The notes: a model not told the origin generated them from the letters alone. A stretch of 64,000 nucleotides of DNA from an uncultured Gammaproteobacteria bacterium (GCA_963711725.1 CAVQFO010000020.1:32770-96769); one strand, 5' to 3'; shown: positions 6,612 through 64,000, numbered from the stretch's first letter. A program made the numbers and translations.

Positions 6612-6617
6612 GAAGCG

Positions 6618-7337: not shown

Positions 7338-7404
7338 GATCGAAGGCCCACACTAGGTGTGCGGAAAACGGGCATGTTAACAAATCGTTGTTGGGGTCGA
7401 TTGG

Positions 7405-7509
7405 CCCCCCTCTCCCTGGCCCTCTCCCGCCAAGGGGAGAGGGGACTCTTCGGCCAGACTTTGGCAAAAGTAGCCTTCTTGCCCCCCTCGCCCCTGGCGG
7501 GAGAGGGGG
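7405..7509. repeat. REP-like hairpin repeats, family E (CCCTCTCCC...GGGAGAGGG)
   Basis: cctctcccgccaaggggagagg hairpin (7421-7443) and cccccctcgcccctggcgggagaggggg (7482-7509). The same motif family recurs at 21877-21987 and directly after the IS element (8738-8753). Confidence 0.7.
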
Positions 7510-7513
7510 TGGA

Positions 7514-8737: not shown

Positions 8738-8901
8738 GGAGAGGGGGATAAACAAAAATAAAAATTGGCAACGTCCGCACATTCCCCGTGCGCAACACCC
8801 CTCTAATCCGCTACAATCCCGCACGTTCTTTCGGGTATTTTCGCTGCCGTCTTGGCGGCCCGCCGGTGCCAGCGCGCGCCGGCCTTTCTTGGGGGAAGTC
8901 C

Positions 8902-10913
8902 TTGGCCCTGGCCCAATTCGCCGTTGTCCTGGCTTTGTGTTCCGCCGCCTTCGGGCTGCTGGCGGACACCTGGCCCCGGACGGCGAAATATCTGGGTTTC
9001 CTCCTGCTGGGCCTGAGCGGCGCCGCCTCCGTGGCCGCCGGTGTTCAGGCGGTGCTGGCCGGCTCCGTCCAGCTCGACATCCTTCCCCTGGGGTTGCCCT
9101 GGCTGACTGGCATCTGCGGCTGGATTCCCTGGCCGGGTTCTTTCTCGGTGTCGTGGGCCTGGGCTGCGTGGCGGTTGCGTTCTACGGGCCGGGCTACGTG
9201 CGCGAGTTCGCGCACGGCCGCCAGCCCATGGCCGTGCTGGGGGTGTTCACGGGCCTGTTCGTGGCCGGGATGCAGCTCGTTGTGTTGGCCGACGATGCCT
9301 TCGCCTTCATGGTGGCCTGGGAGTTGATGTCCCTGGCCAGCTATTTCCTGGTGACCTTCCAGCACCGTCAGGCCGCCAACCGGCGCGCGGGCTTCATCTA
9401 CCTGTTGATGGCCGAGATCGGGGCGCTGGCGATCCTGCTGGCCTTCGGCGTGCTGGCCGGCACCCACGGCAATTTCACCTTCGACGCCATGCGTCATGCG
9501 CATCCCGCGCTGCTATGGGGCAGCATTGCCTTCGCCCTGGCGCTGGTGGGTTTCGGGATGAAGGCCGGGCTGGTTCCGCTGCACGTCTGGCTGCCGGAAG
9601 CCCATCCCGTGGCGCCGTCGCATATATCCGCGTTGATGAGCGGCGTGATGCTCAAGGTGGCGATCTACGGCCTGATCCGTTTTGTGTTCGACCTGCTCGG
9701 CGCCGTGTATTGGGGCTGGGGCGTTGCCCTGCTCCTGGTGGGTGCGGTCAGCGCCCTCTACGGAATCCTTTTCGCCCTGGTTCAGACCGATCTCAAGCGG
9801 ATGCTGGCCTACAGCTCGGTGGAGAACGTGGGCATCATCGCCATGGCACTGGGCCTGGCGCTGGTGTTCCAAGGGGTGGGCCGTCCGGTGCTGGCGTCGT
9901 TGGCGTTGATCGCCGCCCTGTATCACGCTCTGAATCATTCGGTGTTCAAATCGCTGCTGTTCCTGGGCGCGGGCGCTGTGCTCCAGCGCAGCCACGAGCG
10001 TGATCTGGACCGGATGGGCGGGCTGATCCGCCGCATGCCGCAGACGGCGGCCCTGTTCCTGGTGGGTGCGGTCAGCATCTCCGCGCTGCCGCCGTTCAAC
10101 GGCTTCGTGTCGGAGTGGCTGCTGTTCCAGGCCTCGCTGCAGGCGCCGGTGCTGCATAGCGGCGTGCTGCGCTCCGTGATTCCCGTCATCGCGGCGATGC
10201 TGGCGCTCACCGGCGCGTTGGCGGTGGCCTGTTTCGTCAATGCTTACGGCATCGGTTTCCTCGGCCAGCCGCGGACGCGACATGTGGCCCACGCCCGGGA
10301 GGTGGACTGGGGCATGCGAATCGCCATGGGACTGCTGGCGGTGCTGTGTCTGACTCTGGGCGTGGCGCCGACCTATGTCATTGCGGCGCTGGGTCGGGTG
10401 ACCTCCCTGCTGGTGGGCGCGGACCTGAATGGGCTGGGCGGTTCCTGGCTGCATCTGGTGCCCGTATCCAGTCAGACGGCCTCCTACTCGGCACCTCTGG
10501 TGGTGATCGGCCTGCTGCTGGCCTGGGGCCTGATCTGGCTGCTGCTGCACCCGCGCGGGCGCCGGGCGGTACGCCGGGACGCGCCCTGGGATTGCGGTTT
10601 CGGCCCGCTGTCCGCCCGCATGCAATACACCTCCCAGGCCTTTTCCCAGCCGCCGCGCCGGGTGTTCGGCCTGGTCTATGACGTGCAGGAGCAGGTGGAG
10701 GAAACACGCGACCCGGCCGCGGAACTGCGGGTCCAGTCCATCAAGCATCAGCTCAACATCCGCGACCGGGTCTGGAACTGGGGCTATCTACCGGTGGCCC
10801 GCTGGCTGCAGACGGCGGCGCGGCTGGTGGGGCGCAGCCAGACCGGCCACATTCGCGCCTACCTGAGTTATTCCTTTGTCACGTTGCTGTTCCTGTTGTG
10901 GTGGATTACATGA
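8902..10913 (+). pseudogene. HyfB/HycC-like (NuoL/ND5-type) membrane subunit of a hydrogenase-4-like (Ehr-type) complex; single frameshift near 9103-9107, possibly an assembly error
   Basis: Candidate TTG start at 8902 after GGGGGAAG. The N-terminus ALAQFAVVLALCSAAFGLL...LPLGLPWL (frame of track ORF 8788) joins WHLRLDSLAGFFLGVVG...WELMSLASYFLV... (frame of track ORF 8715). About 670 aa in total, as for HyfB. The stop overlaps the next start (ATGA at 10910-10913). Confidence 0.75.
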
Positions 10914-11857
10914 ACGGCTGGGCGCTGGCGGCGGCGGAAACTATCCTGTTCCTGGCGCTGGGTCCGCTGCTGGCGGGCTGGGTGAAGGCGCTGAAGTGCC
11001 TGCTGCAGAACCGTCGGCCGCCGTCGCTGCTCCAGCCCTACCGCAATCTGGCCAAGCTGTTCCGCAAACAGGTGGTGGTGGCCGAGCAGGCCTCCTGGAT
11101 CTTCCGGGCCACGCCTTACATCGTGTTCGCCGCCATGGCGGTGGCCGCGGCGGTGGTGCCGCTGATCGCCGTGCGCCTGCCCACCGCCGGGATGGCGGAC
11201 GTCATCGTGCTGGTGGGATTGTTCGCCCTGGCCCGGTTTTTCCTGGCCCTGGCCGGTCTGGATATCGGCACCACCTTCGGCGGCATGGGCTCCTCGCGGG
11301 AGGTGATGATCGCCTCCCTGGCCGAGCCGGCCATGCTCATGGCGGTATTCACGCTGACCATGACCGCCGCCAGCACCAACCTGTCGGTGGCCATGCAGCA
11401 CATCCTGGACGCCGGGCTGGTGCTGAGGCCGTCGTTCATCTTCGCGCTGCTGGCGCTGCTTCTGGTGGCGGTGGCGGAGAATGCGCGTATCCCGGTGGAC
11501 AATCCGGCCACCCACCTGGAGCTGACCATGGTCCACGAGGCCATGATCCTGGAATACAGCGGCCGGCATCTGGCGCTGCTGGAATGGGCTTCCCAGCTCA
11601 AGCTGGTGATCTACGCCGCGCTGATCGCCAATGTGTTTTTCCCCTGGGGGCTGGCCTTGAACATGTCGCCCGAAGCGCTGGCCTACGGTCTGGGCAGCAC
11701 GCTGCTGAAGCTGGCCGTGCTGGGTGCGGTGCTGGCCTTGGCGGAGACGCTGCTGGCGAAGATGCGCCTGTTCCGGGTGCCGCAGTTTCTGAATCTGGCC
11801 TTTCTGCTGGCGCTGATCGGCATGCTCAGCCACGTGATTCTGGAGGTGGGCTCGTGA
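10910..11857 (+). CDS. HyfC/HycD-like (NuoH-type) membrane subunit
   Basis: 315 aa. ..LLQPYRNLAKLFRKQ..GLDIGTTFGGMGSSRE..AENARIPVDNPATHLELTMVHEAMILEYSG.. are typical formate hydrogenlyase subunit 4 motifs. Confidence 0.85.
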   Translation: MNGWALAAAETILFLALGPLLAGWVKALKCLLQNRRPPSLLQPYRNLAKLFRKQVVVAEQASWIFRATPYIVFAAMAVAAAVVPLIAVRLPTAGMADVIVLVGLFALARFFLALAGLDIGTTFGGMGSSREVMIASLAEPAMLMAVFTLTMTAASTNLSVAMQHILDAGLVLRPSFIFALLALLLVAVAENARIPVDNPATHLELTMVHEAMILEYSGRHLALLEWASQLKLVIYAALIANVFFPWGLALNMSPEALAYGLGSTLLKLAVLGAVLALAETLLAKMRLFRVPQFLNLAFLLALIGMLSHVILEVGS

Positions 11858-48591: not shown

Positions 48592-50676
48592 ATGACGCAG
48601 GGGGGAGCCCTCGCCGGACCCGTCTCCAACCTTGCGGGGGCGGGGCCGAGCATCGCCGCGCGGCTGGAGAAGATTGGTCTGAGCCGGGTGGCTGACCTCG
48701 TCTTCCATTTGCCACTGCGGTATGAGGATCGCACCCGGGTCGTGCCAATGGGCGGCCTGCGTCCCGGCGACCGTGTGCTGGTGCAGGGCACCGTGCAACT
48801 TGCCGAAGTTGCGGCGGGGCGTCGGCGGCGCCTGGTGGCTCGCATCAGTGATGGGACCGGCAGCCTCACTCTGCAGTTCTTCCACTTCTACCCCAATCAG
48901 GTGCGCAGCCTTCGAGCCGGCACGGTGATCCGGTGTTTCGGCGAGGCCCGCCGTGGCGCAGTGGGGCTGCAGATGGTCCATCCGGAGTACAGCGTGGTGG
49001 GCGCCGATGAACCGCCGGAAGAAGAGGGCACGCTGACCCCGATCTATCCGGCAACCGAGGGGGTGAACCAGCCGGTGCTGCGCCGCTTGGTGGAACAGGC
49101 CCTGGCCTTCGCCTCGGAGGAACTGGAGGATCTGCTGCCGGCGGAATGGGCCGCGCAATTGAAGTTGCCGGGGCTCTGGGAGTCGCTGTGCTTTGTTCAC
49201 AGCCCTCCGGCCGGCACCGCCCTGGAACTGCTGGAGAGCAGGGCACATCCCGCCTTCGAGAGACTGGCCTTCGAGGAACTGCTGGCCCATCACCTGAGCC
49301 TGCGCCGTGCCCGCCAACGAGTGCAGCAGGACCAGCGGGCGCCGATCCTGCGGGGCAACGGACGTCTGATTCAGGGGTTCCGCCAAGGGCTGCCCTTCTC
49401 GCTCACCGATGCCCAGGAGCGCGTGGATGTGGAGGTGGGCAGGGATATGGCGAGTCATCGTCCCATGTTGCGGCTGGTGCAGGGCGATGTGGGCTCGGGC
49501 AAGACCGTGGTGGCCGCGCTGGCGGTGTTGCGCGCCGTGGAAAGCGGAATGCAGGCCGCCGTGATGGCCCCTACGGAGCTGCTGGCGGAGCAGCACTACC
49601 GAAACTTCGCGGCGTGGCTGGAGCCGCTCGGGGTGCCGGTGGCATGGCTCAGCGGCCGGCGCGGCGCGGCGGCGCGCCGGGGTGCGCTGCAGGCGCTGGA
49701 AAGCGGAGAGGCCGCCGTGGCCGTGGGCACCCACGCGCTGTTTCAGGGCGAGGTGCAGTTTCATCGGTTGGGCCTGGTGATCGTGGACGAGCAGCACCGT
49801 TTCGGCGTCCATCAGCGCCTGGCGCTCAAGGAAAAGGGCCACCGGCAGGCGGCCCAGCCTCATCAGCTCATCATGACAGCCACCCCCATCCCCCGCACCC
49901 TGGCCATGACGGCCTATGCCGATCTGGATGTTTCGGTGATCGACGAACTGCCCCCCGGGCGGACGCCGGTGAAGACCGTGGCGGTTCCCGCCAGCCGTCG
50001 GGCGGAGGTGATCGAGGGCGTGGAGAAGGCCTGTCGCGAGGGCAGCCAGGCCTACTGGGTCTGCACGCTGATCGAGGAGTCGGATGCCCTGCAGGCCGAG
50101 GCCGCGGAGGACACGGCTCAGCGGTTGGAGCAGGCGCTGCCCGATGTGCGCGTGGGTCTGGTACATGGCCGGATGAAGGCCGCCGACAAGGAGGCGGTCA
50201 TGCAGGCTTTTTCCTCCGGCGAGCTGGACCTGCTGGTGGCCACCACCGTGATCGAGGTGGGCGTGGACGTGCCCAACGCCAGCCTGATGATCATCGAGAA
50301 TGCCGAGCGCCTGGGGCTTGCCCAGTTGCACCAGCTTCGCGGCCGTGTGGGGCGCGGCAGCACGGCCAGCAGTTGTGTGCTGCTATATCAGGCGCCGTTG
50401 TCCGATACCGCGCGCGCCCGCTTGGGCGTGCTGCGCGACAGTAGCGATGGCTTCGAAATCGCCCGCCGGGATCTGGAATTGCGCGGGCCGGGAGAGTTGC
50501 TGGGTACCCGCCAGACCGGGGCCATGCATTTGCGTATCGCCGATCTGACCCGTGACGGCGCCTTGATTCCCCGTGTCCAGAAGGCGGCCGAAAACCTGTT
50601 GGCTGAAGCGCCCGAGGCGGCAGATCGGTTGATCGACCGGTGGGTGGGGGAGGGAGAACGGTACAGCCAGGTGTGA
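48592..50676 (+). CDS. recG: ATP-dependent DNA helicase RecG
   Basis: ATG 48592. Wedge domain, then GDVGSGKT (motif I), DEQHRFG (motif II), and ..QLHQLRGRVGRG... Confidence 0.9.
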   Translation: MTQGGALAGPVSNLAGAGPSIAARLEKIGLSRVADLVFHLPLRYEDRTRVVPMGGLRPGDRVLVQGTVQLAEVAAGRRRRLVARISDGTGSLTLQFFHFYPNQVRSLRAGTVIRCFGEARRGAVGLQMVHPEYSVVGADEPPEEEGTLTPIYPATEGVNQPVLRRLVEQALAFASEELEDLLPAEWAAQLKLPGLWESLCFVHSPPAGTALELLESRAHPAFERLAFEELLAHHLSLRRARQRVQQDQRAPILRGNGRLIQGFRQGLPFSLTDAQERVDVEVGRDMASHRPMLRLVQGDVGSGKTVVAALAVLRAVESGMQAAVMAPTELLAEQHYRNFAAWLEPLGVPVAWLSGRRGAAARRGALQALESGEAAVAVGTHALFQGEVQFHRLGLVIVDEQHRFGVHQRLALKEKGHRQAAQPHQLIMTATPIPRTLAMTAYADLDVSVIDELPPGRTPVKTVAVPASRRAEVIEGVEKACREGSQAYWVCTLIEESDALQAEAAEDTAQRLEQALPDVRVGLVHGRMKAADKEAVMQAFSSGELDLLVATTVIEVGVDVPNASLMIIENAERLGLAQLHQLRGRVGRGSTASSCVLLYQAPLSDTARARLGVLRDSSDGFEIARRDLELRGPGELLGTRQTGAMHLRIADLTRDGALIPRVQKAAENLLAEAPEAADRLIDRWVGEGERYSQV

Positions 50677-52445: not shown

Positions 52446-52478
52446 CGCTGCTTTCATTGATTCATGAGGGCGGTGTCG

Positions 52479-52694
52479 ATGTACGTTTGTGTCTGTAAGG
52501 CGGTGAATGAGCGCCGGATCAAGGAAGCCGTCGCGGAGGGTGCGCGTTCCATGCGTGAGTTGCGTGCCCAGCTTGGGGTGTGCAGCTGCTGCGGCAAATG
52601 CGGCCGCCATGCCCGGGAAGTCCTGGAGACCGCCTGCGAGGAAATCCGCGGCGCCCTGGAAGTCACCATCCTGCCCACCGGCCAGGCCGCCTGA
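52479..52694 (+). CDS. bfd: Bacterioferritin-associated ferredoxin
   Basis: MYVCVCKAVNERRIKEAV...LGVCSCCGKCGRHA has the four Cys of the Bfd [2Fe-2S] motif. Confidence 0.85.
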   Translation: MYVCVCKAVNERRIKEAVAEGARSMRELRAQLGVCSCCGKCGRHAREVLETACEEIRGALEVTILPTGQAA

Positions 52695-52708
52695 ATCCAG
52701 CATCTTGC

Positions 52709-52882
52709 GTAGGAGCGGTCGTGCCGACCGCGAATGATCCAGCGTTGTCAGAAGAGCACGAAGGACACGAAGGCCCACGAAGCTGTTCACTTGGCTAAAG
52801 CCATGACTGCCCGAAAAGCTTCGTGTTTCTCTTCGTGACCTGAAGCGTAATTGCGATTCGCGGTCGGCACGACCGCTCCTAC
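52709..52882. repeat. Family D MITE-like nested palindrome between bfd and bfr
   Basis: gtaggagcggtcgtgccgaccgcgaat (52709-52735) and attcgcggtcggcacgaccgctcctac (52856-52882). Inner pair gaagagcacgaaggacacgaagg with cttcgtgtttctcttcgtgacc. Confidence 0.75.
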
Positions 52883-52971
52883 GGTCGATTTTACTGCAGT
52901 GCCCCCTTTGGACTCCCGCGTTCCGGCATTAGACTGGTCCCATCTTCACGACAGGGACCAAGGAGACGGCA

Positions 52972-53470
52972 ATGAAGGGCGATACCAAGGTTATCGAGTA
53001 CCTAAACAAGGCGCTGTACAACGAGCTCACCGCGATCAATCAGTATTTCCTTCATGCACGGATGCTCAAGAACTGGGGCCTCACCCGGCTTGGCCGACAA
53101 GGAATACGAGGAATCCATCGACGAGATGAAGCATGCGGATAGGCTCATTGAGCGGATTCTGTTTCTGGAAGGGCTGCCCAATCTGCAGGACCTGGGCAAG
53201 CTGATGCTGGGTGAGCACGTGCAGGAAATCCTGCAATGCGACCTTCGCGCCGAGCAGGAGGCCTGTCCGCTGTTGCGCGAGGCCATCGAGTACTGCGAGC
53301 AGAACAAGGACTACGTGAGTCGCGACCTGCTGCAGGACATCCTGGAGGACGAGGAAGAACACATCGACTGGCTGGAGACCCAGCTGGACCTCATCGAGCG
53401 GGTGGGCGATCAGAACTATTCCGCAGTCGCAGATGTAAAGGGCAGGCCGTGGTCGGTGATCAGACGGTGA
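52972..53470 (+). pseudogene. bfr: Bacterioferritin with one clear frameshift (about 53092) and a probable second one near the C-terminus (possibly assembly errors)
   Basis: ATG 52972 after [46 protein letters not shown], then an extra G in ttggcc, then [36 protein letters not shown]...[23 protein letters not shown]. The alternative frame ends ..PQSQM-TAA at 53436-53438, as typical Bfr proteins do. Confidence 0.8.
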
Positions 53471-53982: not shown

Positions 53983-54588
<606 letters not shown>

Positions 54589-54827
54589 CGAAATCCTCCG
54601 TTGATCAAATGAATAAAACGATGCCGGCCGCCCCGGGTGGGGCGGGCCTGTTTGGAAGCATTCCAAATTATACGCGTGGAGGCGTGTGTCGAGAACCGGC
54701 CAAGTTAGTGGAATCACAGAGGCGCAGCGGGCATGGAAACCACTCAGGTCCTGTCCGATTGGCGGAAGTCCCGGTGCGCTACCCGACCTGGCGGCCCAAT
54801 ATCATTCAGCACAATGACTTTTGTGGT

Positions 54828-54910
54828 CTCGCCAAGGCGCCGAGAACGCCAAGAGATACCGAAGTGGATTTCATGGGTTCCTTGGCGTTGTCGGCCGGCG
54901 CCTTGGCGAG
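54828..54910. repeat. Nested hairpin repeat
   Basis: ctcgccaaggcgccg (54828-54842) pairs with cggcgccttggcgag (54896-54910); inner pair aacgccaag with cttggcgtt. Confidence 0.6.
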
Positions 54911-55019
54911 AGGCCTTCCGTTCCCCTCTCCGCTGCGGAGCCCTTGGAAAGCGGCGGGCGCATTGAACTCCATCAATCTAAGTCGGTGCACATGCCCCCG
55001 GCCATTCGGGGCGACTTAC

Positions 55020-55616
55020 TTACTCATCCACAGGGTCGAAGTCCAGCGCCAGCGCCGCGCGTACCCGTTCCGGCATGACCGCCATGTGGGCGTATTCTTG
55101 ATGGCCGATTCCCAACACCACCTCGGTGTCGGGATCGCGGAAGCGCCGGATCTGTTCCGGTTGGAAAGGGAAGTGGATGAATTGGACCGACGAGGCCTTG
55201 CCCTCGGCGGTGCTGCGGTCCATGTCAGCTTCAGGAACGCCGTGGATCTCCTCGCCGTCCAGACGTATGAACGAGGTCTCTTCCACGCCCCCCAGGGTGC
55301 CCAGGATGCGCTGCCGTCGATCCCGGTCCGGGATCTCGAACATCAGCGTAGCCACCAGTTCCCGGCCCTTGGGTATCAGGGGGTTGTAGGCCGCCAACTC
55401 GTCGTCGATCTGTTCCTGGCCGCCCCGCTCGACGAACAGCATTTCGTGAACCTGGCGCCACATGGTGTCGTAGTTCTCGAAATAGAAGGTGGCGTGAGGG
55501 CCTACCTCAAGCCGGCGGTTGCGCTTCAGCGTGGTGATTTCGGTGCGTTTTTCGGCGCGGATCCTGCCGTATTCGTCCATGGAGAGGATGTCGTCGGGGG
55601 TGATTTCGTGTTTCAT
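55020..55616 (-). CDS. DUF3501 family protein
   Basis: 198 aa. Its position directly after the HdrD-like Fe-S protein and rubrerythrin matches the conserved three-gene arrangement I recall. Family assignment is from memory of the sequence pattern (..ATFYFENYDTMWRQVHEML..). Confidence 0.55.
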   Translation of the reverse strand: MKHEITPDDILSMDEYGRIRAEKRTEITTLKRNRRLEVGPHATFYFENYDTMWRQVHEMLFVERGGQEQIDDELAAYNPLIPKGRELVATLMFEIPDRDRRQRILGTLGGVEETSFIRLDGEEIHGVPEADMDRSTAEGKASSVQFIHFPFQPEQIRRFRDPDTEVVLGIGHQEYAHMAVMPERVRAALALDFDPVDE

Positions 55617-55629
55617 GACGGAAATCCCT

Positions 55630-56967
55630 TCAGATCAGGCCGTAGGCCCGGGCCACAAGCTGGATCGGGTGTTCCGAGCGCGTCGGCGCGTCGGCGCCGT
55701 CCTGGCGCTCCAGACCCTGAACGATATGGCTGCCCGCCAGTGGGCATTCCGAAGCCAGATGCTGTTTGCCGGCGCCGACGACCTGCCGCGCCGCCGGGCG
55801 TCCCACTTTCAGAGCCGTTTCGAAATGCTCCTTCTTGATGCCCCAGGCGCCGCCGTGTCCCGAGCATCGCTCGATGACCGAGAGGTCCATGTCCGGAATC
55901 AATCGCAGCATTTCTGCCGCCTTGGCACCCATGTTCTGGGCGCGGGCGTGGCAGGCCAGATGCAGTGCGACTCCGCCGGGCAGAGGCTTCAGGCCCGGCG
56001 CCATGCCTTCCTTGGAGGCGATGCCGACGATGTATTCGCTGACGTCGGCGGTGTGTTCGGCCAGGCGCTGAACCTGTGCGTCGTTCGGGAGGATCAGCGG
56101 CCATTCGAATTTGATCATCAATGCGCAGGAGGGGACCAGGGCGATGATGTCGTAGCCCTCGTCAATCCAGCGCTGCAGTCGCCCCGCCACCTTGCGCGCG
56201 CTCTCAGCGACCCCCGGGAGATCCCCTTGTTCCAGCCGCGGCATGCCGCAGCAGCCTTCGTAGATCACCTCGGTTTCCACGCCGTTGAGGGCCAGCACAG
56301 CGCGGGTGGCCATGCCGATGTCCGGGTTGTTGTAGTTGCCGAAGCAGGTGGCATAGAGCACCGCTTTCCGGCCGTGGGCGGGCGCTTGCGTGTTGACCTG
56401 GGCTGGTATGTCCCTGGCCCGGCGGACCAGTGTCTTGCGGTGAAACACCGGCAGGGCGGCGTCGCGGTGGACGTCCAAGGTCTTTTCCAGCAGCGGCCTT
56501 GTGACATTGTTGCCGGTACGGTTGGCCCAATTGGCCAGCGGCGCCACGGCGCCGGCCAGGCGCCCGTTACGGTCCGTGCGCGTAAGCGCGTGATCGGCGA
56601 AACCATGCCGGCCCTGGTGTTCCTCCACCGCTCGATGGCGGAGCATCAGGTGGGGAAAGTCCACGTCGAACTCGTGGGGCGGCACATAGGGGCACTTCGT
56701 CATGAAGCACATGTCGCAAAGCGTGCAGGCGTCCGCCACGGCCTGGAAGCCGGAGGCGTCCACGCTGTCCAGTTCGCCGGTTTCGGACTCGTCGATCAAG
56801 TCGAACAGGCGCGGGAAACTGTCGCAAAGGTTGAAGCAGCGACGGCAGCCGTGGCAGATGTCGAACACCCGCCGTTCCTCGGCCTCCAGTTTTTCCGGAT
56901 CGTAGAAATCCGGGCTTTCCCAGGGAATGGGGTGACGCGTGGGGGCGCCCAGTCCGCCTTCGCTCAT
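55630..56967 (-). CDS. Heterodisulfide reductase-related (HdrD/GlpC-like) Fe-S oxidoreductase
   Basis: Two ferredoxin-like Cys clusters (CHGCRRCFNLCDSFP and CTLCDMCFMTKCPY) and CCG-domain motifs (..ATCFGNY..CCGMP.., ..PSCALM..). Confidence 0.8.
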   Translation of the reverse strand: MSEGGLGAPTRHPIPWESPDFYDPEKLEAEERRVFDICHGCRRCFNLCDSFPRLFDLIDESETGELDSVDASGFQAVADACTLCDMCFMTKCPYVPPHEFDVDFPHLMLRHRAVEEHQGRHGFADHALTRTDRNGRLAGAVAPLANWANRTGNNVTRPLLEKTLDVHRDAALPVFHRKTLVRRARDIPAQVNTQAPAHGRKAVLYATCFGNYNNPDIGMATRAVLALNGVETEVIYEGCCGMPRLEQGDLPGVAESARKVAGRLQRWIDEGYDIIALVPSCALMIKFEWPLILPNDAQVQRLAEHTADVSEYIVGIASKEGMAPGLKPLPGGVALHLACHARAQNMGAKAAEMLRLIPDMDLSVIERCSGHGGAWGIKKEHFETALKVGRPAARQVVGAGKQHLASECPLAGSHIVQGLERQDGADAPTRSEHPIQLVARAYGLI

Positions 56968-57043
56968 AAGCCGCTCCCGTGATCAACAGACGAGGCCGCA
57001 AGGGCCCGAGGGGCGGGGTCGGCGACCCGCGCCCCGGCTTGCG

Positions 57044-57475
57044 TCAGCCGTTCAGGCCGTCCAGGGCCTTCTTGAAACGGCCCGCGTGGGAGCGCTCGGC
57101 CTTGGCCAGTGTTTCGAACCAGTCGGCAATTTCGTCGAAGCCTTCATCGCGCGCGGTTCGGGCCATGCCCGGATACATGTCCGTGTATTCGTAGGTCTCT
57201 CCGGCGATGGCGGATTTGAGGTTGGCGTCGGTGGCGCCGAAGGGTTCGCCCGTCGCCGGGTCGCCCACCTCCTGCAGAAACTCCATATGCCCATGGGCGT
57301 GGCCGGTTTCGCCCTCGGCGGTGGAGCGGAACACCGCGGACACGTCGTTGTAACCCTCCACGTCCGCCTTTTGGGCGAAATACAGGTAGCGCCGGTTGGC
57401 CATGGATTCGCCGGCAAAGGCCTCTTTGAGATTCGCTTCCGTTTTGGATCCGCTCAAGCCAGGCATGGTGGTCAC
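57044..57475 (-). CDS. Rubrerythrin-family diiron protein (erythrin type, no rubredoxin domain)
   Basis: [58 protein letters not shown] (ExxH diiron motifs). Confidence 0.85.
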
Positions 57476-57535
57476 CTCCGTGGTGGTTTGCAGCCGGTGT
57501 CGTCGGGGGCGGCACCCGCCGCGCCCCTCCTATGT

Positions 57536-57563
57536 GTAATAGCACAGGGCGGCCGGCCGTCAA
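57536..57563 (-). promoter_or_regulatory. Candidate sigma-70 promoter of the rubrerythrin operon
   Basis: Minus strand TTGACG (57563-57558), 16-nt spacer, TATTAC (57541-57536). It lies about 60 nt upstream of ATG 57475, directly downstream of the ICE-like box. Confidence 0.45.
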
Positions 57564-57567
57564 CCAG

Positions 57568-57584
57568 ATTAGAAAAATTCTAAA
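57568..57584. promoter_or_regulatory. ICE-like (Irr-box) palindrome ATTAGAA-AAA-TTCTAAA
   Basis: 16 of 17 positions match the Bradyrhizobium iron control element TTTAGAA-N3-TTCTAAA, recalled from memory. It lies 11 nt after the irr-like stop and abuts the -35 of the rubrerythrin promoter. Confidence 0.55.
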
Positions 57585-57594
57585 GTATGGGAGG

Positions 57595-58005
57595 TCAGGT
57601 TCTGCTGACGCGCACGATGACGTCCACGCGCTGCACGCGGGTGCCGGCGGGCGCCGGGGGGACGTCGTGGACGGAGAGGCGATCGGTGGGGATGTCTTCC
57701 AGGCGGCCTTCCTCTTCGAAGAAGAAGTGGTGGTGGTCGCTGGTGTTGGTGTCGAAGTAGGAGCGCCGGGGGTCGATGGCGATCTCGCGGAGCAGGCCCG
57801 AGGCGGTGAATTGATGGAGGCTGTTGTACACGGTGGCCAGGGAGACCTTTACTCCGGCGGTGCGTGCCTCCTGGTGCAGTTGCTCTGCGGTGACATGGCG
57901 ATGGCCGTGGGCAAAGATGAGCCGGGCCAGAGCAAGCCGCTGGCCCGTGGCGCGCAGGCCGGCCGCGTGCAGTCGTTCCCGGAGTTCGTTCGGTTGGGCC
58001 CGCAT
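57595..58005 (-). CDS. irr: Fur-family regulator of the Irr (iron response regulator) type
   Basis: ATG 58005, 136 aa, no cysteines. LRATGQRLALARLIF..RHVTAEQLHQEA..VKVSLATVYNSLHQFTASGLLREI..SYFDTNTSDHHHFFFEEE is collinear with B. japonicum Irr (..LRPTRQRMALGWLLF..HLTAEML..SLATVYNTLNQLTDAGLLRQV..TYFDTNVTTHHHYYLE), including the HHH motif. Confidence 0.7.
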   Translation of the reverse strand: MRAQPNELRERLHAAGLRATGQRLALARLIFAHGHRHVTAEQLHQEARTAGVKVSLATVYNSLHQFTASGLLREIAIDPRRSYFDTNTSDHHHFFFEEEGRLEDIPTDRLSVHDVPPAPAGTRVQRVDVIVRVSRT

Positions 58006-58157
58006 ACTCGTTGCAATCCTCGCCGTGGCGGCGGTACGTACACCAAAGCTTAACTTTACCCGCGCCACTCTGCCAGCAGGACTCTTACGTCGGGAGGTCT
58101 TGACGCGTTTCGTGGGGCTTGCCGGAGTTTGCGGCGAGGGGCGGTTCGCGGCCGGGT

Positions 58158-58589
58158 CTAGAACGGTTTGATCACTACCAGGATCACGATGGCGACGAGA
58201 GCCAGGGCGGGGGCTTCGTTGAACCACCTGTACCAGACGTGGGAGTGGTGATTTCGGTCATCCCTGAAGGCGCGCAGCAGCCGACCGCAATAAAGGTGGT
58301 AGCCAATCAGGGCGACGACCAGCAGCAGTTTGATGTGCAGCCAACCCTGCTTGAGCCAGCCCGGAAAGATCCAAAGCATGGCCAGCCCGCATGCCACCGC
58401 CAGCCAGGCGCTGGGCGTCATGATGCCGCGGTAGAGTTTGCGCTCCATGATCTTGAACCGCTCGCGGCTGGGCTCGTCCTCGGCCATGGCGTGGTAGACG
58501 AAAAGTCGGGGCAGATAGAACAGGGCCGCGAACCACGTGATGACGAAAATGATATGGAACGCCTTGAACCAGAGATAGGCACCGGACAC
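58158..58589 (-). CDS. hemJ: Protoporphyrinogen IX oxidase HemJ
   Basis: GTG 58589. YLWFKAFHIIFVITWFAALFYLPRLFVYH..RFKIMERKLYRGIMTP..H.K.. is the HemJ/UPF0093 pattern. Confidence 0.8.
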   Translation of the reverse strand: MSGAYLWFKAFHIIFVITWFAALFYLPRLFVYHAMAEDEPSRERFKIMERKLYRGIMTPSAWLAVACGLAMLWIFPGWLKQGWLHIKLLLVVALIGYHLYCGRLLRAFRDDRNHHSHVWYRWFNEAPALALVAIVILVVIKPF

Positions 58590-58593
58590 CGCT

Positions 58594-59106
58594 TCAGCTC
58601 CGGGTGGTACCGGGCAACATGCCCTCAATCTGCTTGCGGGTGCGCTCCAGGTTGAGTTCCCCGATGGTGCGCTGAACGATATGGCCTTGTGGGTCTACGA
58701 GGAAGCTGGTGGGTGTGACCTGAATGTTTCCGAAGGCCTTGGCGTAGGTGCCGTCGGCGTCCAGGGCGATGGAGTAGGGCAGCCCTTTTTCCTTGCGCAT
58801 GGCGCGGACCTGGTCCGGGGGGTCGTAGGACATGGCCACGGCCACCATGTTGAAGCCCTTCTCGTGGAGGTCCTGGTAGAGCGCCTTGAGTTGCGGGATT
58901 TCCGCGACGCAGGTTACGCAGGACGTTGCCCAGAAGGTCACCAGAGTCGGGTGGCCGCTGTCGCGCAAGGCGATCTGCTGGCCGTCCAACGTCTTCAAGG
59001 TGATGTCCGGCGCATCGCCGCCCTGCCAGGGCCCGAACCAGATGATGGCGACGGCGATCAGTACCGCAGCCAGGCCGCCGTTCACTATCAGGCTTTTGGG
59101 TTTCAT
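58594..59106 (-). CDS. TlpA-family thiol:disulfide oxidoreductase (membrane-anchored thioredoxin-like)
   Basis: N-terminal TM segment. TLVTFWATSCVTCVAEIP (CxxC) and ..TPTSFLVDPQGHIV... Confidence 0.8.
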   Translation of the reverse strand: MKPKSLIVNGGLAAVLIAVAIIWFGPWQGGDAPDITLKTLDGQQIALRDSGHPTLVTFWATSCVTCVAEIPQLKALYQDLHEKGFNMVAVAMSYDPPDQVRAMRKEKGLPYSIALDADGTYAKAFGNIQVTPTSFLVDPQGHIVQRTIGELNLERTRKQIEGMLPGTTRS

Positions 59107-60566
59107 GCTGTTTTGCCCTCAGCGCTTTCAGCCTTGCTGCCACCCTCACCAGTGGCCGGAGCCTCTTCGGCAGGTGGCGTGGTATCCCGCCAGAACGCCT
59201 TGGCGAGCACCGCGTAGACGGGTTCCGGGCAGATCAGCCGCGAGGTGCCGTGCGCAATCAAGGTCGTCGCCATCAGCGGTACGATCAAACCGTTGTTGTC
59301 CGTCATCTCCATGACAATGACGAAGGTGGTGATCGGCGTTTGCACCACGCCCGCGAAATACGCGGCCATCCCCAACAGTATAACCGTGGCCCGGGGTGCG
59401 AAGGGCGCCAGGTGCGCCATGGCTCCACCCAGCTCGGCGCCAGCCGAGAGGCTGGGTGAGAACAGGCCGCCCGGAATGCCGCTGAGATAGGACACCAGAG
59501 TTGCCGCGATCTTCAGGAACGGCGAGAAGATGGTGCCGTGGTAGTCGGCCAGGGCACCCTGGCCGTTGCCGAGCAGGGCGCGGGCCTCGCCATAACCGGT
59601 GCCGTAGGTGTGGCCGTGGGCCAGCAGACCCACCACCACGATAAGCAGGCCGCAGCCCATGCCGAAGAGGATGGGCTTGGAGCGCCGGATAGGTCCCAGG
59701 CGCTGGGAGCCCTTGATGAGCAACTGGCTGAACAAGCCGCCGAACAGGCCACCGATCACGCCGCAGATGGGTATCACCACCCAGCTGGTGTCCATGGGCA
59801 GCGCCGTGGAAACCTCGCCGAAATACGAATAGTTGCCGGCCATGATCAGGGTGGTCAAACCAGCGAAGATTACCGACGTGAGCACGATGCCGCTGGTGTA
59901 CTCCTCATAGGTCCGGTTCAGTTCTTCGATGGCGAACACGATACCGGCCAGTGGTGTATTGAACGCCGCCGACAGCCCCGCCGCGCTGCCCCCGAGAATC
60001 AATCCCTTTTCCAGGTAGTGGGCCGGGAATCGGGCCAGTCGGGCCATGGAATACATGATGCAGGCGCCGACGTGAATGGTCGGGCCCTCGCGGCCGATGG
60101 AGGCACCGAACACCAGGCCCAACAGGCTGACGACCACCTTGGCGATGGCAACGGGAATGGAAAGCAGCGTCTTGCGCAGGGGGTGGACGGCCTTGACCTG
60201 CAGCGAGGCAATGGCTTGGGGGATGCCGCTGCCGCTGGAGCCGGGGAAGTACCGCTCGGTAAACCAGACCAGCAGGCCCATGCCCAGCGGCGTGATGGCA
60301 AGCGGCAGCCAGGGTGAGCGATGCCAGACCAGCATGAACAGTTCGCTTGCCTTGTCCGCGGAGAAAGCGAACCCCACGCCGATGGCACCCACCATGAGAG
60401 CGGAGATCCAGAATACCAATCGGACCCGCCAGGCCAGCGGCGAAAAAAGTTGATGTCGCGACTTGCGAAAATTGCTGAGCATCGCATCCAGCTTGTTGAT
60501 CGGTTGATGTCCAGCCCCGAGGGCCGCACCGCGTATTACCGGGTCCGTGCTGGCGCGCAACGCCAT
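59103..60566 (-). CDS. ClC-family voltage-gated chloride channel/antiporter (no CBS domains)
   Basis: GSGIPQ, GREGPTIH, GIVFAIEE, and the GLFSPSL-type selectivity region. The start is uncertain (ATG 60566 or 60482). Confidence 0.8.
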   Translation of the reverse strand: MALRASTDPVIRGAALGAGHQPINKLDAMLSNFRKSRHQLFSPLAWRVRLVFWISALMVGAIGVGFAFSADKASELFMLVWHRSPWLPLAITPLGMGLLVWFTERYFPGSSGSGIPQAIASLQVKAVHPLRKTLLSIPVAIAKVVVSLLGLVFGASIGREGPTIHVGACIMYSMARLARFPAHYLEKGLILGGSAAGLSAAFNTPLAGIVFAIEELNRTYEEYTSGIVLTSVIFAGLTTLIMAGNYSYFGEVSTALPMDTSWVVIPICGVIGGLFGGLFSQLLIKGSQRLGPIRRSKPILFGMGCGLLIVVVGLLAHGHTYGTGYGEARALLGNGQGALADYHGTIFSPFLKIAATLVSYLSGIPGGLFSPSLSAGAELGGAMAHLAPFAPRATVILLGMAAYFAGVVQTPITTFVIVMEMTDNNGLIVPLMATTLIAHGTSRLICPEPVYAVLAKAFWRDTTPPAEEAPATGEGGSKAESAEGKTA

Positions 60567-60951
60567 GGCAGATCGGTTTCACTGCGGTGTGGTCCTGTCC
60601 CCGAGGGTGGTCCGGCGCGCGGGATCGAATGCCCGCTCGCCACTGTCGGGATGTGGAAGCTCGGCCCGGAAGTCCGTTCGACTCCCGCGCCGTAACCCGT
60701 GCGTGTCCGTTTCGGTCTCGGCTTGAGCCGAACAGGCCCGCCGCAAAAGGTCCGCAGACGTCTGCCGAATTTCTTCGGACCAGCTCAGATTCCGAGGCCT
60801 GAAGTCCTGTCGGCCGCCCATGTGGCAGGGCGGAAGGTGGACTGTGCAGAAGGGTAACCGGCGCCGGCACGAATCGCCGGGCCAGAGAGCAGCCACGGCT
60901 GCGTATTGTCGGGAATTTCCATCGGGAACGCAAGGTTACCCGTCCGACGGG

Positions 60952-62712
60952 CTATTCCATCAATTCGGCACTCTCGCGGGCGGTGCGCACGATCTCCCGG
61001 GACGTGATTACGCCCACCAGGTCTTCGATATCGCGTGTGCGGCGGTGGCGTGTGACCAGTGCGAACTCCGTATCCTTGGCCTTCATGCCCCGCAGCAACA
61101 CCGCCCAGGGTGTGCTGCTGGTGACCAGGAAGAAGTTCGTGTTGATCAGGGATTCGGGGTTCTCGTCCCGCAGCAGGTATTGAACTTCCTCGCGGGCGAT
61201 GCCGTAGATTTCGCCGTCCTTGGAGAACACGGTGTAGCGCGAACCCTCACCGGGCTGATGGGTGGCCTGCCACTCGTGAATATCCTTGAGGTCCACCACC
61301 TGCAGGTCGTTGCTCATGATCGTGCGGGCGTTGCGCACCGACGAAATAGCCGCCTCAAGTCCTTGGGGGACACCCATGCCCCGCCGCAGGAGCTTCAATG
61401 TGTAGATGCTCTCGGACACCAGCTTGACGCGCAGCACGTAGGCCAGCGACACCGTCAGTATGATCGGCAGGATGGCGGCGTAGTCGCGGGTCTGCTCGAA
61501 GGTCATGGTGATGGCGGTGAGCACCGCCCCTGTGGCGCCGCCGACCATGCCGGCCATGGCGGCCACCGTGAACAAGGTGGGGTCCATGTGGTGACCGGGG
61601 AAAACCACAGCCATCAACTGGCCGAAACTGGCGCCCAGGGTTGCGCCCAGGAACAAGGCCGGCGAGAACACGCCGCCGGATGCGCCTGACCCCAGCGTGA
61701 AGCCCGTCGCCAGCAGTTTGCCGACGAAAAGCAGCAGCAGGAAGCCGGGGTTTGTAAGCGCCTCGCGCAGGATGTCCAGGATGGTGGCGTAGCCCACGCC
61801 GCCCACGTAGTACTCGCCGGTGTAGCGCATGAACAGGTAGAGCATGAGGCCCACCATGAACATGCCGGTGGCGTGGCGCAGGTAGCCGTTCTTGAAATAC
61901 TGGCCAAAACGGTCCTCGAACCAGTAAATGGAGCGGATGAACAAGGTGGAGGCCAAGCCCACCAGTACTCCCAGGGGGATGCAGGCAAGCAGGGCGTAGA
62001 GATCCACGGCGTGGGTGTTGAAAACCGCCAGGCGCGGAACGTCGAACGAGGGGCTCAGTCCGTAGTAGAGGCGGCCGATGTAGCTGGCGGTGACGGTGGA
62101 CACGGCCACCAGGGCCACGGTGCGGGCGCTGATGGAAACCAGCATCAGCTCCATGGCGAAGGCCAGGCCGCCGATGGGGGCATTGAACGTTGCGGCGATG
62201 GCCGCCGCCGCGCCGGCGCCAACCAGAACCACGCGCTGGCGTACGGGCATGCGGATGATCTGGCCCATGGTGGAGCCGAAGGCCGAGCCGATCTGGATGA
62301 TGGGGCCTTCCCGGCCCACGGACCCGCCGGTGCCGATGGATACCGCCGAGGCCAGGGCCTTGGCCGCCACGATAATCGGGCGAATGCGCCCCTGTTTGTA
62401 GTAAATGGCGTTCATCACCTCGGGAACACCGTGACCTCGGGCCTCGGGGGCCAGGGTGTTGGTGATCCAGGTGACCAGCAAGGCGCCTCCCACGGGGACC
62501 AGGATGATGGCCCAGGCCCAGGGCGACGGCAGGATATGGGCGTCCGGGTCGAAGACCAGTGAGAATTCGCCGTAGAAGAAGAGGTTGTGGAAGAAGGCGA
62601 TCATGACTCGGAACAGGATGGAGCCGAAACCGCCGAACACGCCGACGAGCAGCGCCAGACTGAACATCCACGCGGCTGGAAGCGGGCGTTCTTCTTCGTC
62701 GTTGCTCTGCAT
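60952..62712 (-). CDS. ClC-family chloride channel with a C-terminal CBS pair
   Basis: ATG 62712. GHGVPEV, GREGPIIQ, GGLAFAMEL, GGVFSPALF. The C-terminus ..VRNARTIMSNDLQVV...EDLVGVITSREIVR has two CBS motifs. Confidence 0.8.
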   Translation of the reverse strand: MQSNDEEERPLPAAWMFSLALLVGVFGGFGSILFRVMIAFFHNLFFYGEFSLVFDPDAHILPSPWAWAIILVPVGGALLVTWITNTLAPEARGHGVPEVMNAIYYKQGRIRPIIVAAKALASAVSIGTGGSVGREGPIIQIGSAFGSTMGQIIRMPVRQRVVLVGAGAAAAIAATFNAPIGGLAFAMELMLVSISARTVALVAVSTVTASYIGRLYYGLSPSFDVPRLAVFNTHAVDLYALLACIPLGVLVGLASTLFIRSIYWFEDRFGQYFKNGYLRHATGMFMVGLMLYLFMRYTGEYYVGGVGYATILDILREALTNPGFLLLLFVGKLLATGFTLGSGASGGVFSPALFLGATLGASFGQLMAVVFPGHHMDPTLFTVAAMAGMVGGATGAVLTAITMTFEQTRDYAAILPIILTVSLAYVLRVKLVSESIYTLKLLRRGMGVPQGLEAAISSVRNARTIMSNDLQVVDLKDIHEWQATHQPGEGSRYTVFSKDGEIYGIAREEVQYLLRDENPESLINTNFFLVTSSTPWAVLLRGMKAKDTEFALVTRHRRTRDIEDLVGVITSREIVRTARESAELME

Positions 62713-62896
62713 CGGTGCCCTTATGCCATTGGAGGCCGAGGCGGCGACTGGTTCGGATCCGCTCTGCCCCGTGGCGGATCGCGATCGCCGGGTTGTCCTT
62801 GGCGAATGAGCCGGTCGCGATGCGCGCCTTGCGCTCTCGACCATGACCCATTCCCCATCTTCGGCGATTTTCCGGGGGCGAGCAAGGTGGCTCCGG

Positions 62897-64000
62897 TCAA
62901 TCGCCTCCAGGTTCCAAGGTCATGGATTGCCGGGCGACGTCGGCTCGAGTCAGCAAGCCCCTCACATGGACCTCTCCCGGTTGCTCTTCCTGGATCACGC
63001 ACAGGGCCTCGGCGTCGGAGTCGCGAAACCGGGTGACGGCCTGCCGAAGAGTTTCACGCACGTCGATGGGCTCCGCCTCGATGTGTTTGGCAGGAATGGC
63101 AGCCAGCTCGATCGGGTCTTCCCGGCTTTCCTCCAGATAATGCAGAACGTCAGCGACCGGGAGGGCGAGGGCACGCGAGACCCGCGCATCCGAGGGCAGC
63201 AGTATCCAGCGCGGGTGATCCCGGAGAGCCTGTTCGACACGTGCCCGGGAGGGGCGTTGGGGGAGGACGGCGATTCTGCGCTCCATGATTCGGGCGAGCC
63301 CGAGGCGCCCGAGCGCGCGGCTGACCGGGTTGTTTCTCGGCCGGATTCCGCGGCTGCGCAGCTTCTGAAGGAAATAGGACTCCTTGGAGAACAGAATGCT
63401 GTTGCACAGCGTAGCGCCAGCGATGGCAAGCATGCCGGGAAGTATGATCTGAGGATCCGCGGTCAGCTCCAGCAGGGCAGTCAGGGCGGCCAAGGGAGCG
63501 CGCAGGGCCGCGCTCATCATCGCGCCCATCCCGATCATGGCATAGAAGCCGGGGCTGGCTGTGGTGGGAGGGGTGAGCTGGACCGCAACATGGCCGGCCG
63601 CGGCGCCGGCGGCGGCGCCAATGAAGACGACGGGGCCGATCACGCCGCCCGGCAGGCCGCACCCCAACGCCGCCATGCCGGCCAGAAGCTTTGCAGCGAC
63701 GATGACCAACAGGGCGCCGAAGGCGATCTGCCCCAGCAATACGGCGTTGACCGTGTCGTAGCCGACGCCCAGTGCGTGGGGCACCGCCACGCCGATAAGG
63801 CCGCAGGCCAGGCCGCCAAGGGTGGCTCGGAGGACGATGGGTTGGTTTGCCGTTAGGCCGCTGAATCTCAGTATTGCCCGGTTGAACAGTGCCGCCAGCC
63901 CGCCCATGACCACGCCGGTCACGAACACGCCCGGAAGATCGGGAAGTCCGCCCATGTTCAGAGGGGGAACCGCGAAAGCCGGCGTGTCGCCATAGACCAT
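62897..64000 (-). CDS. ClC-family chloride channel with a CBS pair, C-terminal part (5' end beyond the window)
   Basis: ..GLPGGVIGPVVFIGAA..GFYAMIGMGAMMSAALRAPLAAL..LELT.., then CBS-like ..LARIMERRIAVL...VRGLLTRADV... The M at 64000 is coincidental; TM helices continue to the window edge. Confidence 0.7.
   Translation of the reverse strand: MVYGDTPAFAVPPLNMGGLPDLPGVFVTGVVMGGLAALFNRAILRFSGLTANQPIVLRATLGGLACGLIGVAVPHALGVGYDTVNAVLLGQIAFGALLVIVAAKLLAGMAALGCGLPGGVIGPVVFIGAAAGAAAGHVAVQLTPPTTASPGFYAMIGMGAMMSAALRAPLAALTALLELTADPQIILPGMLAIAGATLCNSILFSKESYFLQKLRSRGIRPRNNPVSRALGRLGLARIMERRIAVLPQRPSRARVEQALRDHPRWILLPSDARVSRALALPVADVLHYLEESREDPIELAAIPAKHIEAEPIDVRETLRQAVTRFRDSDAEALCVIQEEQPGEVHVRGLLTRADVARQSMTLEPGGD

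Follow-up and report, generated by a model that had tools for sequence, protein, structure and literature searches.

An Irr-type regulator and an ICE-type operator precede a rubrerythrin operon in an uncultured gammaproteobacterium

Organization of the locus

The subject of this study is a four-gene cassette, composed of irr, rbr, RFO, and DUF3501, in a 64,000-nucleotide (nt) stretch of DNA (the window) from an uncultured gammaproteobacterium of a soil metagenome. Between positions 53983 and 58628, the genes hemJ, irr, rbr, RFO, DUF3501, and prx follow one another on the minus strand, with spacers of 152 nt between hemJ and irr, 128 nt between irr and rbr, and 431 nt between DUF3501 and prx. 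The irr gene (57595-58005, minus strand) encodes a 136-amino-acid (aa) Fur-family regulator of the Irr type that is matched by the NCBIfam IrrA and Irr models and by Pfam FUR. Downstream of irr lies a palindrome of the iron control element (ICE) type, TTTAGAA-TTT-TTCTAAT (57584..57568, minus strand), recognized by its consensus and weight-matrix match and by its conservation. This operator is followed by a predicted rbr promoter (57563-57536, minus strand), assigned from sequence and from conservation among gammaproteobacterial spacers. The operon itself begins with rbr (57044-57466, minus strand), which encodes a 140-aa rubrerythrin of the aerobic or sulerythrin type that lacks a rubredoxin domain (Pfam Rubrerythrin). 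It continues with the HdrD-like RFO gene (55630-56967, minus strand), encoding a 445-aa HdrD/GlpC-like iron-sulfur (Fe-S) oxidoreductase (Pfam CCG), and with the DUF3501 gene (55020-55616, minus strand; 198 aa; Pfam DUF3501, 2e-58). On re-reading, the coordinates and sequence given for this locus in an earlier note, written from the sequence alone, proved correct. The same gene order is found on three related contigs, L001, L002, and L174, from ENA metagenome assemblies ERZ25039483 and ERZ25039549.

The regulator belongs to the Irr family

Judged from its sequence, the 136-aa regulator is a genuine member of the Irr family rather than a Fur or PerR protein. It scores 203.4 bits on the NCBIfam IrrA model NF045678 (cut-off of 150) and 185.9 bits on the NCBIfam Irr model NF045677 (cut-off of 170). 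In contrast, the best PerR model reaches 70.7 bits against a cut-off of 250 (PerR cut-offs range from 180 to 250), and the best Fur model reaches 41.3 bits. These scores agree with the earlier assignment of the protein to the Irr kind, as does the composition of the protein, which had been described as a cysteine-free Fur-family protein with an HHH motif. There is no Cys among the 136 residues, and the Cys4 zinc site of Fur and PerR is consequently absent, with the positions of PerR C96 and C99 occupied by F and E. The HHH motif is located at residues 91-93, within D90-H91-H92-H93. The five positions that correspond to the regulatory-metal ligands of PerR (H37, D85, H91, H93, and D104) are invariant in 82 of 82 alphaproteobacterial Irr proteins and in all gammaproteobacterial copies. 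H92 is kept in 80 of these 82 proteins, and the Arhodomonas and L177 copies described below have HYH at the motif. In addition, the recognition-helix segment VSLATVYNSLHQF is nearly identical to that of alphaproteobacterial Irr.

Having no Cys, the window protein also lacks the Cys-Pro heme regulatory motif that is found in Bradyrhizobium Irr. This motif is a feature of one subtype, and the Irr protein of Rhizobium leguminosarum also lacks it (PMC7762939). In the published biology of this family, apo-Irr binds the ICE and heme acts at an HxH site, where it abolishes DNA binding of those Irr proteins that do not have the heme regulatory motif (PMC7762939). Irr functions as a repressor or as an activator according to the position of the box, and direct activation is reported to be common (PMC7762939).

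An ICE-type operator abuts the rbr promoter

The box begins at the 11th nt after the TGA stop codon of irr (10 nt lie between) and, as had been noted previously, differs by a single mismatch from TTTAGAA-N3-TTCTAAA. Four nt (CTGG) separate it from a predicted -35 hexamer, TTGACG (57563-57558), which is followed by a 16-nt spacer and a -10 element, TATTAC (57541-57536). A TG at 57544-57543 would make this an extended -10 element, TG-C-TATTAC. A strict sigma-70 consensus scan listed no promoter in 54400-58300; the rbr promoter is unlisted because its -10 element ends in C, and the promoter assignments therefore rest on conservation. TTGACG and TGCTA are invariant in six divergent gammaproteobacterial spacers, and TTGAC is found 2-6 nt after the box in 95 of 117 distinct cassette spacers. 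The reading of the box as abutting a TTGACG-N16-TATTAC promoter is thereby borne out, with the layout conserved across cassettes.

To score the box, a weight matrix was derived from 102 distinct boxes in the irr-rbr spacers of other loci. The rbr box reaches 28.8 bits, compared with a top score of 20.4 bits in 300 simulated 64-kb sequences. When the irr-rbr and DUF3501-prx spacers were each shuffled 5000 times, no shuffle reached the observed score. Matches to the ICE consensus with at most three mismatches number two in the window, where 0.21 would be expected, and 111 of the 123 distinct irr-rbr spacers contain a box at this threshold, versus 0.6% of shuffled spacers. The rbr box is also kept in L001, L002, and L174. 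Its match and conservation identify it as an ICE-type operator.

Two further features of this spacer were observed. In L174, an element of about 266 nt that resembles a miniature inverted-repeat transposable element, with 53-nt imperfect terminal inverted repeats, lies between the irr stop codon and the ICE box (L174:7092-7357) and leaves the box and promoter intact. In the window, a GC-rich hairpin, GGGGCGCGGCGGGTGCCGCCCC (57506-57527, minus strand), is located in the predicted 5' untranslated region of rbr; it is kept in L002 and L174 and is not found in the other gammaproteobacterial cassettes.

A second ICE-like box lies at the peroxiredoxin gene

The earlier note had proposed that additional boxes be sought near iron-related genes. 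Carried out on the 64 kb of the window, this search gave one additional site, at prx, and none at bfd-bfr. The prx gene (53983-54588, minus strand) encodes a 201-aa 2-Cys peroxiredoxin of the AhpC/PrxC type (NCBIfam peroxiredoxin C, 327 bits; cut-off of 301). The second box, TTTGGAA-TGC-TTCCAAA (54667..54651, minus strand), was identified by consensus and weight matrix, scores 21.5 bits (the matrix match spans 54650-54668), and is a new result of the present analysis. Its first base coincides with the final T of a perfect TATAAT (54672-54667), approximately 65 nt upstream of the prx start codon, a placement in which the box would likely cover the prx transcription start. Transcription of rbr and prx is predicted to begin near 57529 and 54660, respectively. 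A 27-nt island at this box, CGCGTATAATTTGGAA(T/C)GCTTCCAAA, is kept in the window, L002, and L174, whereas its flanks have diverged. The TTGGAA-N3-TTCCAA variant found here also serves as the rbr box in Arhodomonas and in several alphaproteobacterial cassettes. Based on these sequence features, prx is a probable second target of Irr. The gene does not lie beside the cassette in any alphaproteobacterial locus, in Arhodomonas, or in Nitrococcus, and it therefore looks like a target that was gained in the window lineage.

Beyond the rbr and prx boxes, the weight-matrix scan of the 64 kb detected no ICE-like site of at least 12 bits, and neither in the window nor in its relatives does a second box precede irr itself, unlike in some alphaproteobacterial loci. 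The bfd-bfr pair, a classic ICE target in Bradyrhizobium, is located 3 kb from the cassette (52464-53435). The weight-matrix scan found no ICE-like site there, and a search of this pair for Fur boxes gave only weak matches of at least six mismatches, one of them upstream of bfd with six.

With both boxes in view, the possibility may be considered that the regulator is a PerR-like, metal-catalyzed peroxide sensor, that the palindromes are Per-type boxes, and that the resemblance to Irr reflects only shared ancestry. This reading appears improbable. PerR models and structures do provide the next-best matches to the protein, whose closest solved relative is PerR (PDB ID: 2fe3, 2.5e-12), but both Irr equivalog models are passed while the PerR models remain far below cut-off (71 versus 250 bits). 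All five PerR regulatory-metal ligand positions are kept; the same positions, however, are invariant in the 82 alphaproteobacterial Irr proteins too, and the window protein lacks the Cys4 zinc site. That both putative targets are peroxidases would suit a PerR protein, yet the boxes in front of them match the ICE sequence TTAGAA-N3-TTCTAA and obtain their 28.8 and 21.5 bits from a matrix of alphaproteobacterial spacers.

The target operon is a previously described rubrerythrin cluster

The closest structural matches of Rbr are rubrerythrins of 140-169 aa (PDB IDs: 9onm and 4di0, both at 2e-71), followed by sulerythrin (PDB ID: 1j30, 1.5e-52). RFO has the Pfam CCG domain, and its match to the GlpC model is below cut-off; among named organisms, its closest homologues occur in two Arhodomonas isolates and a Gammaproteobacteria metagenome-assembled genome (MAG), at 77% identity, and in Nitrococcus, at 69%. 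The DUF3501 protein has a profile match to an entry described as an 'uncharacterized novel protein' (PDB ID: 3fjv). Three consecutive genes with the Pfam domains Rubrerythrin, CCG, and DUF3501, the first without a rubredoxin domain, make up the arrangement by which the aerobic-type rubrerythrin cluster is defined. This cluster has been reported in 185 genomes, including those of alpha-, beta-, and gammaproteobacteria (Cardenas et al. 2016, PMC5114695); the same study proposes that it scavenges peroxide, with RFO as the partner for electron transfer. The operon had been presented in the earlier note as having no established function, a statement that this description supersedes. The term Irr is never used in that report, and no Irr-type regulator is named there for the cluster (PMC5114695).

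Rubrerythrin had also been counted among the classic ICE targets. This holds in part: blr7895, the classic 'rubrerythrin-like' target, is homologous to another protein, MbfA (PMC3413700), whereas a minimal regulon that joins Irr to a rubrerythrin was indeed predicted earlier (PMC1698941).

The DUF3501-prx spacer contains a long nested inverted repeat (54827-54911, no strand applicable), a hairpin whose paired stretches of 16 and 15 nt are 100% and 93% complementary, respectively. The window has a single copy, and the corresponding L174 spacer has none. The repeat may be a terminator at the end of the operon or an insertion resembling a repetitive extragenic palindrome.

The cassette resides in a gammaproteobacterial host

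The sequence places the host among the gammaproteobacteria, near Ectothiorhodospiraceae. RecG (48592-50673) shares 68-69% of its residues with its counterparts in Aquisalimonadaceae, Ectothiorhodospiraceae, Aquisalimonas, and Alkalilimnicola, and the order ridA-recG-ubiC-ubiA is common to the window, Aquisalimonas lutea, Aquisalimonadaceae MAGs, and Alkalilimnicola ehrlichii. Because of this identity and synteny, the earlier assignment to a gammaproteobacterium stands, and an alphaproteobacterial host, which would have made the module ordinary, is not what was found. A search through these RecG neighbors for an 'empty site' in Irr-less relatives found none, since synteny stops after ubiA in Aquisalimonas, the Aquisalimonadaceae MAGs, and Alkalilimnicola.

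An alphaproteobacterial fragment joined to a gammaproteobacterial contig during assembly or binning would give a similar picture. In favor of this reading, alphaproteobacterial proteins are the closest Irr homologues by identity (up to 73%), and several MAGs of unrelated phyla contain alphaproteobacterial-like cassettes that are probably mis-binned. Such an artefact is nonetheless very hard to reconcile with the data and is given almost no weight. Contig L001 is almost identical to the window, the Irr protein of L002 is 91% identical, and that of L174, which comes from a second assembly, is 93% identical. The hemJ-irr and DUF3501-prx junctions thus recur on independent contigs of different strains from two assemblies, which indicates that they are not an accident of assembly. 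Gammaproteobacterial-type genes flank the cassette on both sides, the GC content shows no step at the cassette, and Rbr, RFO, and DUF3501 group with their counterparts in Arhodomonas, Nitrococcus, the gammaproteobacterial MAG L177, and L179 (taxon unknown) and not with alphaproteobacterial ones.

Among the flanking genes, hemJ (58158-58589, minus strand; TIGR00701 HemJ) belongs to the host and lies outside the module. Further upstream, beyond hemJ and a tlpA-like gene, three consecutive voltage-gated chloride channel (CLC) genes occupy 59103-64000; L001, L002, and L174 have this run of genes as well. Rfam and tRNA scans of the window gave no matches.

The cassette is conserved in alphaproteobacteria

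Homologues were sought by scanning one genome per species (GTDB release 232) and JGI metagenomes with the Irr protein. These scans yielded 160 loci with Irr proteins 59-72% identical to that of the window, and the named ones are nearly all Rhodospirillales-like alphaproteobacteria; apart from L001, L002, and L174, no copy more than 73% identical was found in either set. In most of the 160 loci, rbr, the Fe-S oxidoreductase gene, and DUF3501 come after irr and share its strand. By sequence, irr, the box, rbr, RFO, and DUF3501 constitute a conserved four-gene cassette that more than 100 alphaproteobacterial loci share, with box and promoter laid out alike. In the two alphaproteobacterial contexts examined, the cassette follows infB-rbfA-truB-rpsO-pnp, in one of them with fabA-fabB, and neither hemJ nor prx adjoins it in any alphaproteobacterial locus. 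A subset of these loci (for example, L053:5870, L109:5871, L018:1437, and L029:5890) has another strong ICE-like box, located 60-220 nt ahead of irr, which suggests autoregulation.

The presence of the system in these bacteria is in line with previous work. A minimal Irr regulon made up of a rubrerythrin-like gene was predicted for Rhodospirillum, Magnetospirillum, and Pelagibacter by a study that detected neither Irr nor the ICE in bacteria other than alphaproteobacteria (Rodionov et al. 2006, PMC1698941).

The scans also returned alphaproteobacterial-like Irr proteins from MAGs (L009, L011-L014, L054, L064, and L065) that are labeled as Acidimicrobiia, Verrucomicrobiia, Akkermansiaceae, Binatia, Bacteroidota, Patescibacteria, and Sulfotelmatobacter. 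Most of these loci show part or all of the cassette, and L054, L064, and L065 have irr alone. In the Irr tree, the latter three fall inside the Magnetospirillum and Telmatospirillum groups, and they are therefore likely to be mis-binned contigs.

Gammaproteobacterial copies of the operon form a clade of their own

The Irr-protein scans missed Arhodomonas, whose Irr is 58% identical to that of the window; it surfaced through the search with RFO. In Arhodomonas sp. AD133 (L173), an irr-like gene, rbr, RFO, and DUF3501 are located between fliQ and fliR (6488-10975), and the box, TTCTTGGAATCATTCCAAGAA, is followed by AC and then TTGACG. The encoded Irr protein has 138 aa and scores 181.5 bits on the IrrA model and 175.2 bits on the Irr model. 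At this site, the cassette splits the flagellar export gene cluster. The four cassette genes are also present in a different context in a gammaproteobacterial MAG (L177/L178) and in yet another on contigs L179/L180 (taxon unknown), and in both cases the box is followed by TTGACG, N16, and TGCTA. In a Nitrococcus MAG (L175), the order is hemJ-rbr-RFO-DUF3501-bfd, with no irr and with no ICE-like site of at least 10 bits. From its sequence, this MAG is a natural control in which regulator and operator are absent together. Its hemJ-rbr spacer (L175:371-487) contains an inverted repeat with 11-nt arms, TGTTGACATCC-N18-GGATGTCAACA, that may be the operator of another regulator or a hairpin.

A functional link between hemJ and irr was considered and rejected. 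The earlier note had read the position of irr directly downstream of hemJ as fitting heme-coupled sensing, but this adjacency is not a conserved feature of Irr: the context is pnp/fabAB in alphaproteobacteria and fliQ-fliR in Arhodomonas, and in Nitrococcus hemJ stands directly beside rbr without irr.

Trees of the operon proteins were built by neighbor joining with bootstrap from the gammaproteobacterial copies (the window clade, the Arhodomonas/L177/L179 group, and Nitrococcus) and 46 alphaproteobacterial copies. The split between gamma- and alphaproteobacterial copies has a bootstrap of 95 for Rbr, 99 for RFO, 74 for DUF3501, and 100 for their concatenation. These trees, in which the gammaproteobacterial copies form a clade of their own, lead to the rejection of a recent alphaproteobacterial import, and so does the GC profile, which is flat and consistent with an old event.

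The history of irr is less clear-cut. The window protein is 62-73% identical to the alphaproteobacterial copies versus 53-58% to those of the Arhodomonas group. A neighbor-joining tree of Irr (124 columns) is too poorly resolved to place the gammaproteobacterial copies and, taken by itself, does not unite the window clade with the other gammaproteobacterial Irr proteins (bootstrap of 5), which counts against a single gammaproteobacterial branch. In distance quartets, by contrast, 73% pair the two gammaproteobacterial groups. The Arhodomonas-group Irr proteins evolve faster (distance to PerR of 1.72 versus 1.41-1.44), and position 19 is Ala in all gammaproteobacterial copies versus Pro in 82 of 82 alphaproteobacterial ones. 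The quartets, this faster rate, and Ala19 point to one gammaproteobacterial Irr clade, although irr could conceivably have been replaced by an alphaproteobacterial copy.

The simplest history would be a single entry of the cassette into a gammaproteobacterial lineage, followed by relocation or exchange among gammaproteobacteria and then by the loss of irr and the box in Nitrococcus. The most likely source would be the alphaproteobacteria, where Irr is general and occupies a stable context. From these patterns we infer both the direction of transfer and the single origin of irr. As had been suggested, the complete module of regulator, operator, and target is present. Its parts move jointly, and the module is best read as having spread laterally, though not as a recent import.

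A local, heme-released repressor of peroxide defence is proposed

Taken together, the locus is likely to be a self-contained cassette in which Irr is a repressor that is released by heme and acts locally on peroxide defence, namely the rbr operon and prx. In this mechanism, the apo-Irr dimer would bind the box that abuts the rbr -35 element and probably also the second box, over the prx -10 element and start site, such that the rbr operon and prx would be off while heme or iron is scarce. With sufficient iron, heme would be made and would bind at the HHH motif (HxH), the affinity of Irr for DNA would fall, and both peroxidase systems would be released. Control of the Rhizobium leguminosarum type is proposed because the protein lacks the Cys-Pro heme regulatory motif known from Bradyrhizobium Irr, and for the same reason the degradation route of Bradyrhizobium is unlikely. 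Oxidants may plausibly aid the inactivation of Irr, as reported for Bradyrhizobium.

Repression is the most likely sign of regulation: the second box lies over the prx start, the 4-nt gap between the first box and the rbr -35 element could be bridged by a Fur-type footprint, and Rbr and RFO are costly in iron. With two peroxidases as putative targets, one of them free of iron, peroxide defence describes the output better than iron sparing does. Irr also looks local in its reach, a regulator of peroxide defence and not a global iron regulator, since the 64 kb have no other site of at least 12 bits and none at bfd-bfr.

Several observations weigh against this proposal. The rbr box lies upstream of the -35 element, centered at approximately -47, a position that could also serve activation. 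In Pelagibacter, rbr is up 1.57-fold under iron limitation, which is opposite to simple repression at low iron (PMC2864753). The thiol peroxiredoxin is iron-free, and an iron-sparing logic fails for the second box. The scan for further sites covered only the 64 kb of the genome analyzed here, and a search for RNA runs containing sequence of the locus found none. Finally, an 18-bit ICE look-alike, TTTTGGAAGCTTTCAAATC, is present at a control locus of an Aquisalimonadaceae MAG (L085:17351 / L086:16886), 38 nt upstream of an NMT1-type ATP-binding cassette (ABC) substrate-binding gene. No irr gene was found in the stretch examined around it, and single AT-rich palindromes can therefore arise without Irr. 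This look-alike may be due to chance or be the site of another regulator.

The first two of these observations bear on an alternative in which apo-Irr, bound just upstream of the -35 element, recruits RNA polymerase at low iron or heme while prx is repressed through the box over its start, such that the two peroxidases alternate. The 4-nt gap between box and -35 element is found in the window and in most cassettes, and direct, position-dependent activation by Irr is reported to be common (PMC7762939). However, a Fur-family dimer centered near -47 would probably overlap the -35 hexamer in part, and switching on the iron-rich pair of di-iron Rbr and Fe-S RFO when iron is scarce contradicts the usual logic of Irr. 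The Pelagibacter effect, for its part, is small and not tied to Irr (PMC2864753). Activation is accordingly regarded as a rather unlikely alternative to heme-released repression.

Building on the repressor model, a broader scenario may be put forward tentatively: a mobile, self-regulated peroxide-defence cassette would have crossed from alpha- to gammaproteobacteria once, moved between chromosomal sites, and in the window lineage extended its control to a host gene through a new ICE box that evolved over the prx promoter, with Irr operating as a local peroxidase switch gated by heme and oxidants and not as a regulator of iron homeostasis.

Comparison with known systems

The window, together with the Arhodomonas isolates and several MAGs, suggests that a regulator, its operator, and its target can move intact as one unit into another class. 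The aerobic-type rubrerythrin cluster, so far without a regulator, gains a testable candidate and cue, and the peroxiredoxin box offers a small and clean case of a transferred regulator that appears to have acquired a host target. Published accounts regard Irr and the ICE as peculiar to alphaproteobacteria. A literature search found no paper that reports either of them outside this class, and the NCBI Irr models already recognize the Arhodomonas copy.

One of the closest known counterparts is the Irr-ICE system of Bradyrhizobium japonicum and Rhizobium leguminosarum, with which the window shares a protein that passes the Irr and IrrA models, the HxH/HHH motif, the lack of a structural zinc site, and a 17-bp palindrome at the promoter. 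It differs in its gammaproteobacterial host, in the missing Cys-Pro motif, and in having two sites in 64 kb with none at bfd-bfr. In addition, the classic Bradyrhizobium target blr7895 is a homologue of MbfA, whereas the target in the window is Rbr (PMC3413700). Bacillus subtilis PerR resembles the window protein as its closest solved relative, in the five metal-ligand positions, and in having peroxidase targets; in contrast to PerR, the window Irr has no Cys4 zinc site, stays below the PerR model cut-offs, and is associated with an ICE-type operator.

On the side of the target, the cluster of Cardenas et al. (PMC5114695) has the same three genes in the same order, with a rubredoxin-less Rbr, a CCG-domain Fe-S oxidoreductase, and DUF3501. 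The difference is that irr and an ICE box precede this cluster in the window, in many alphaproteobacterial genomes, and in some gammaproteobacterial ones. The minimal Irr regulon of Rhodospirillum rubrum, Magnetospirillum, and Pelagibacter is similar in its one or two ICE sites and its rubrerythrin target (PMC1698941), and the irr-box-rbr-RFO-DUF3501 layout of the window matches that of more than 100 mostly Rhodospirillales-like loci. Relative to that regulon, the window unit resides in a gammaproteobacterium, belongs to a clade specific to that class, and has an extra box at a peroxiredoxin gene. The locus widens the range of the known Irr system and adds no new kind of system.

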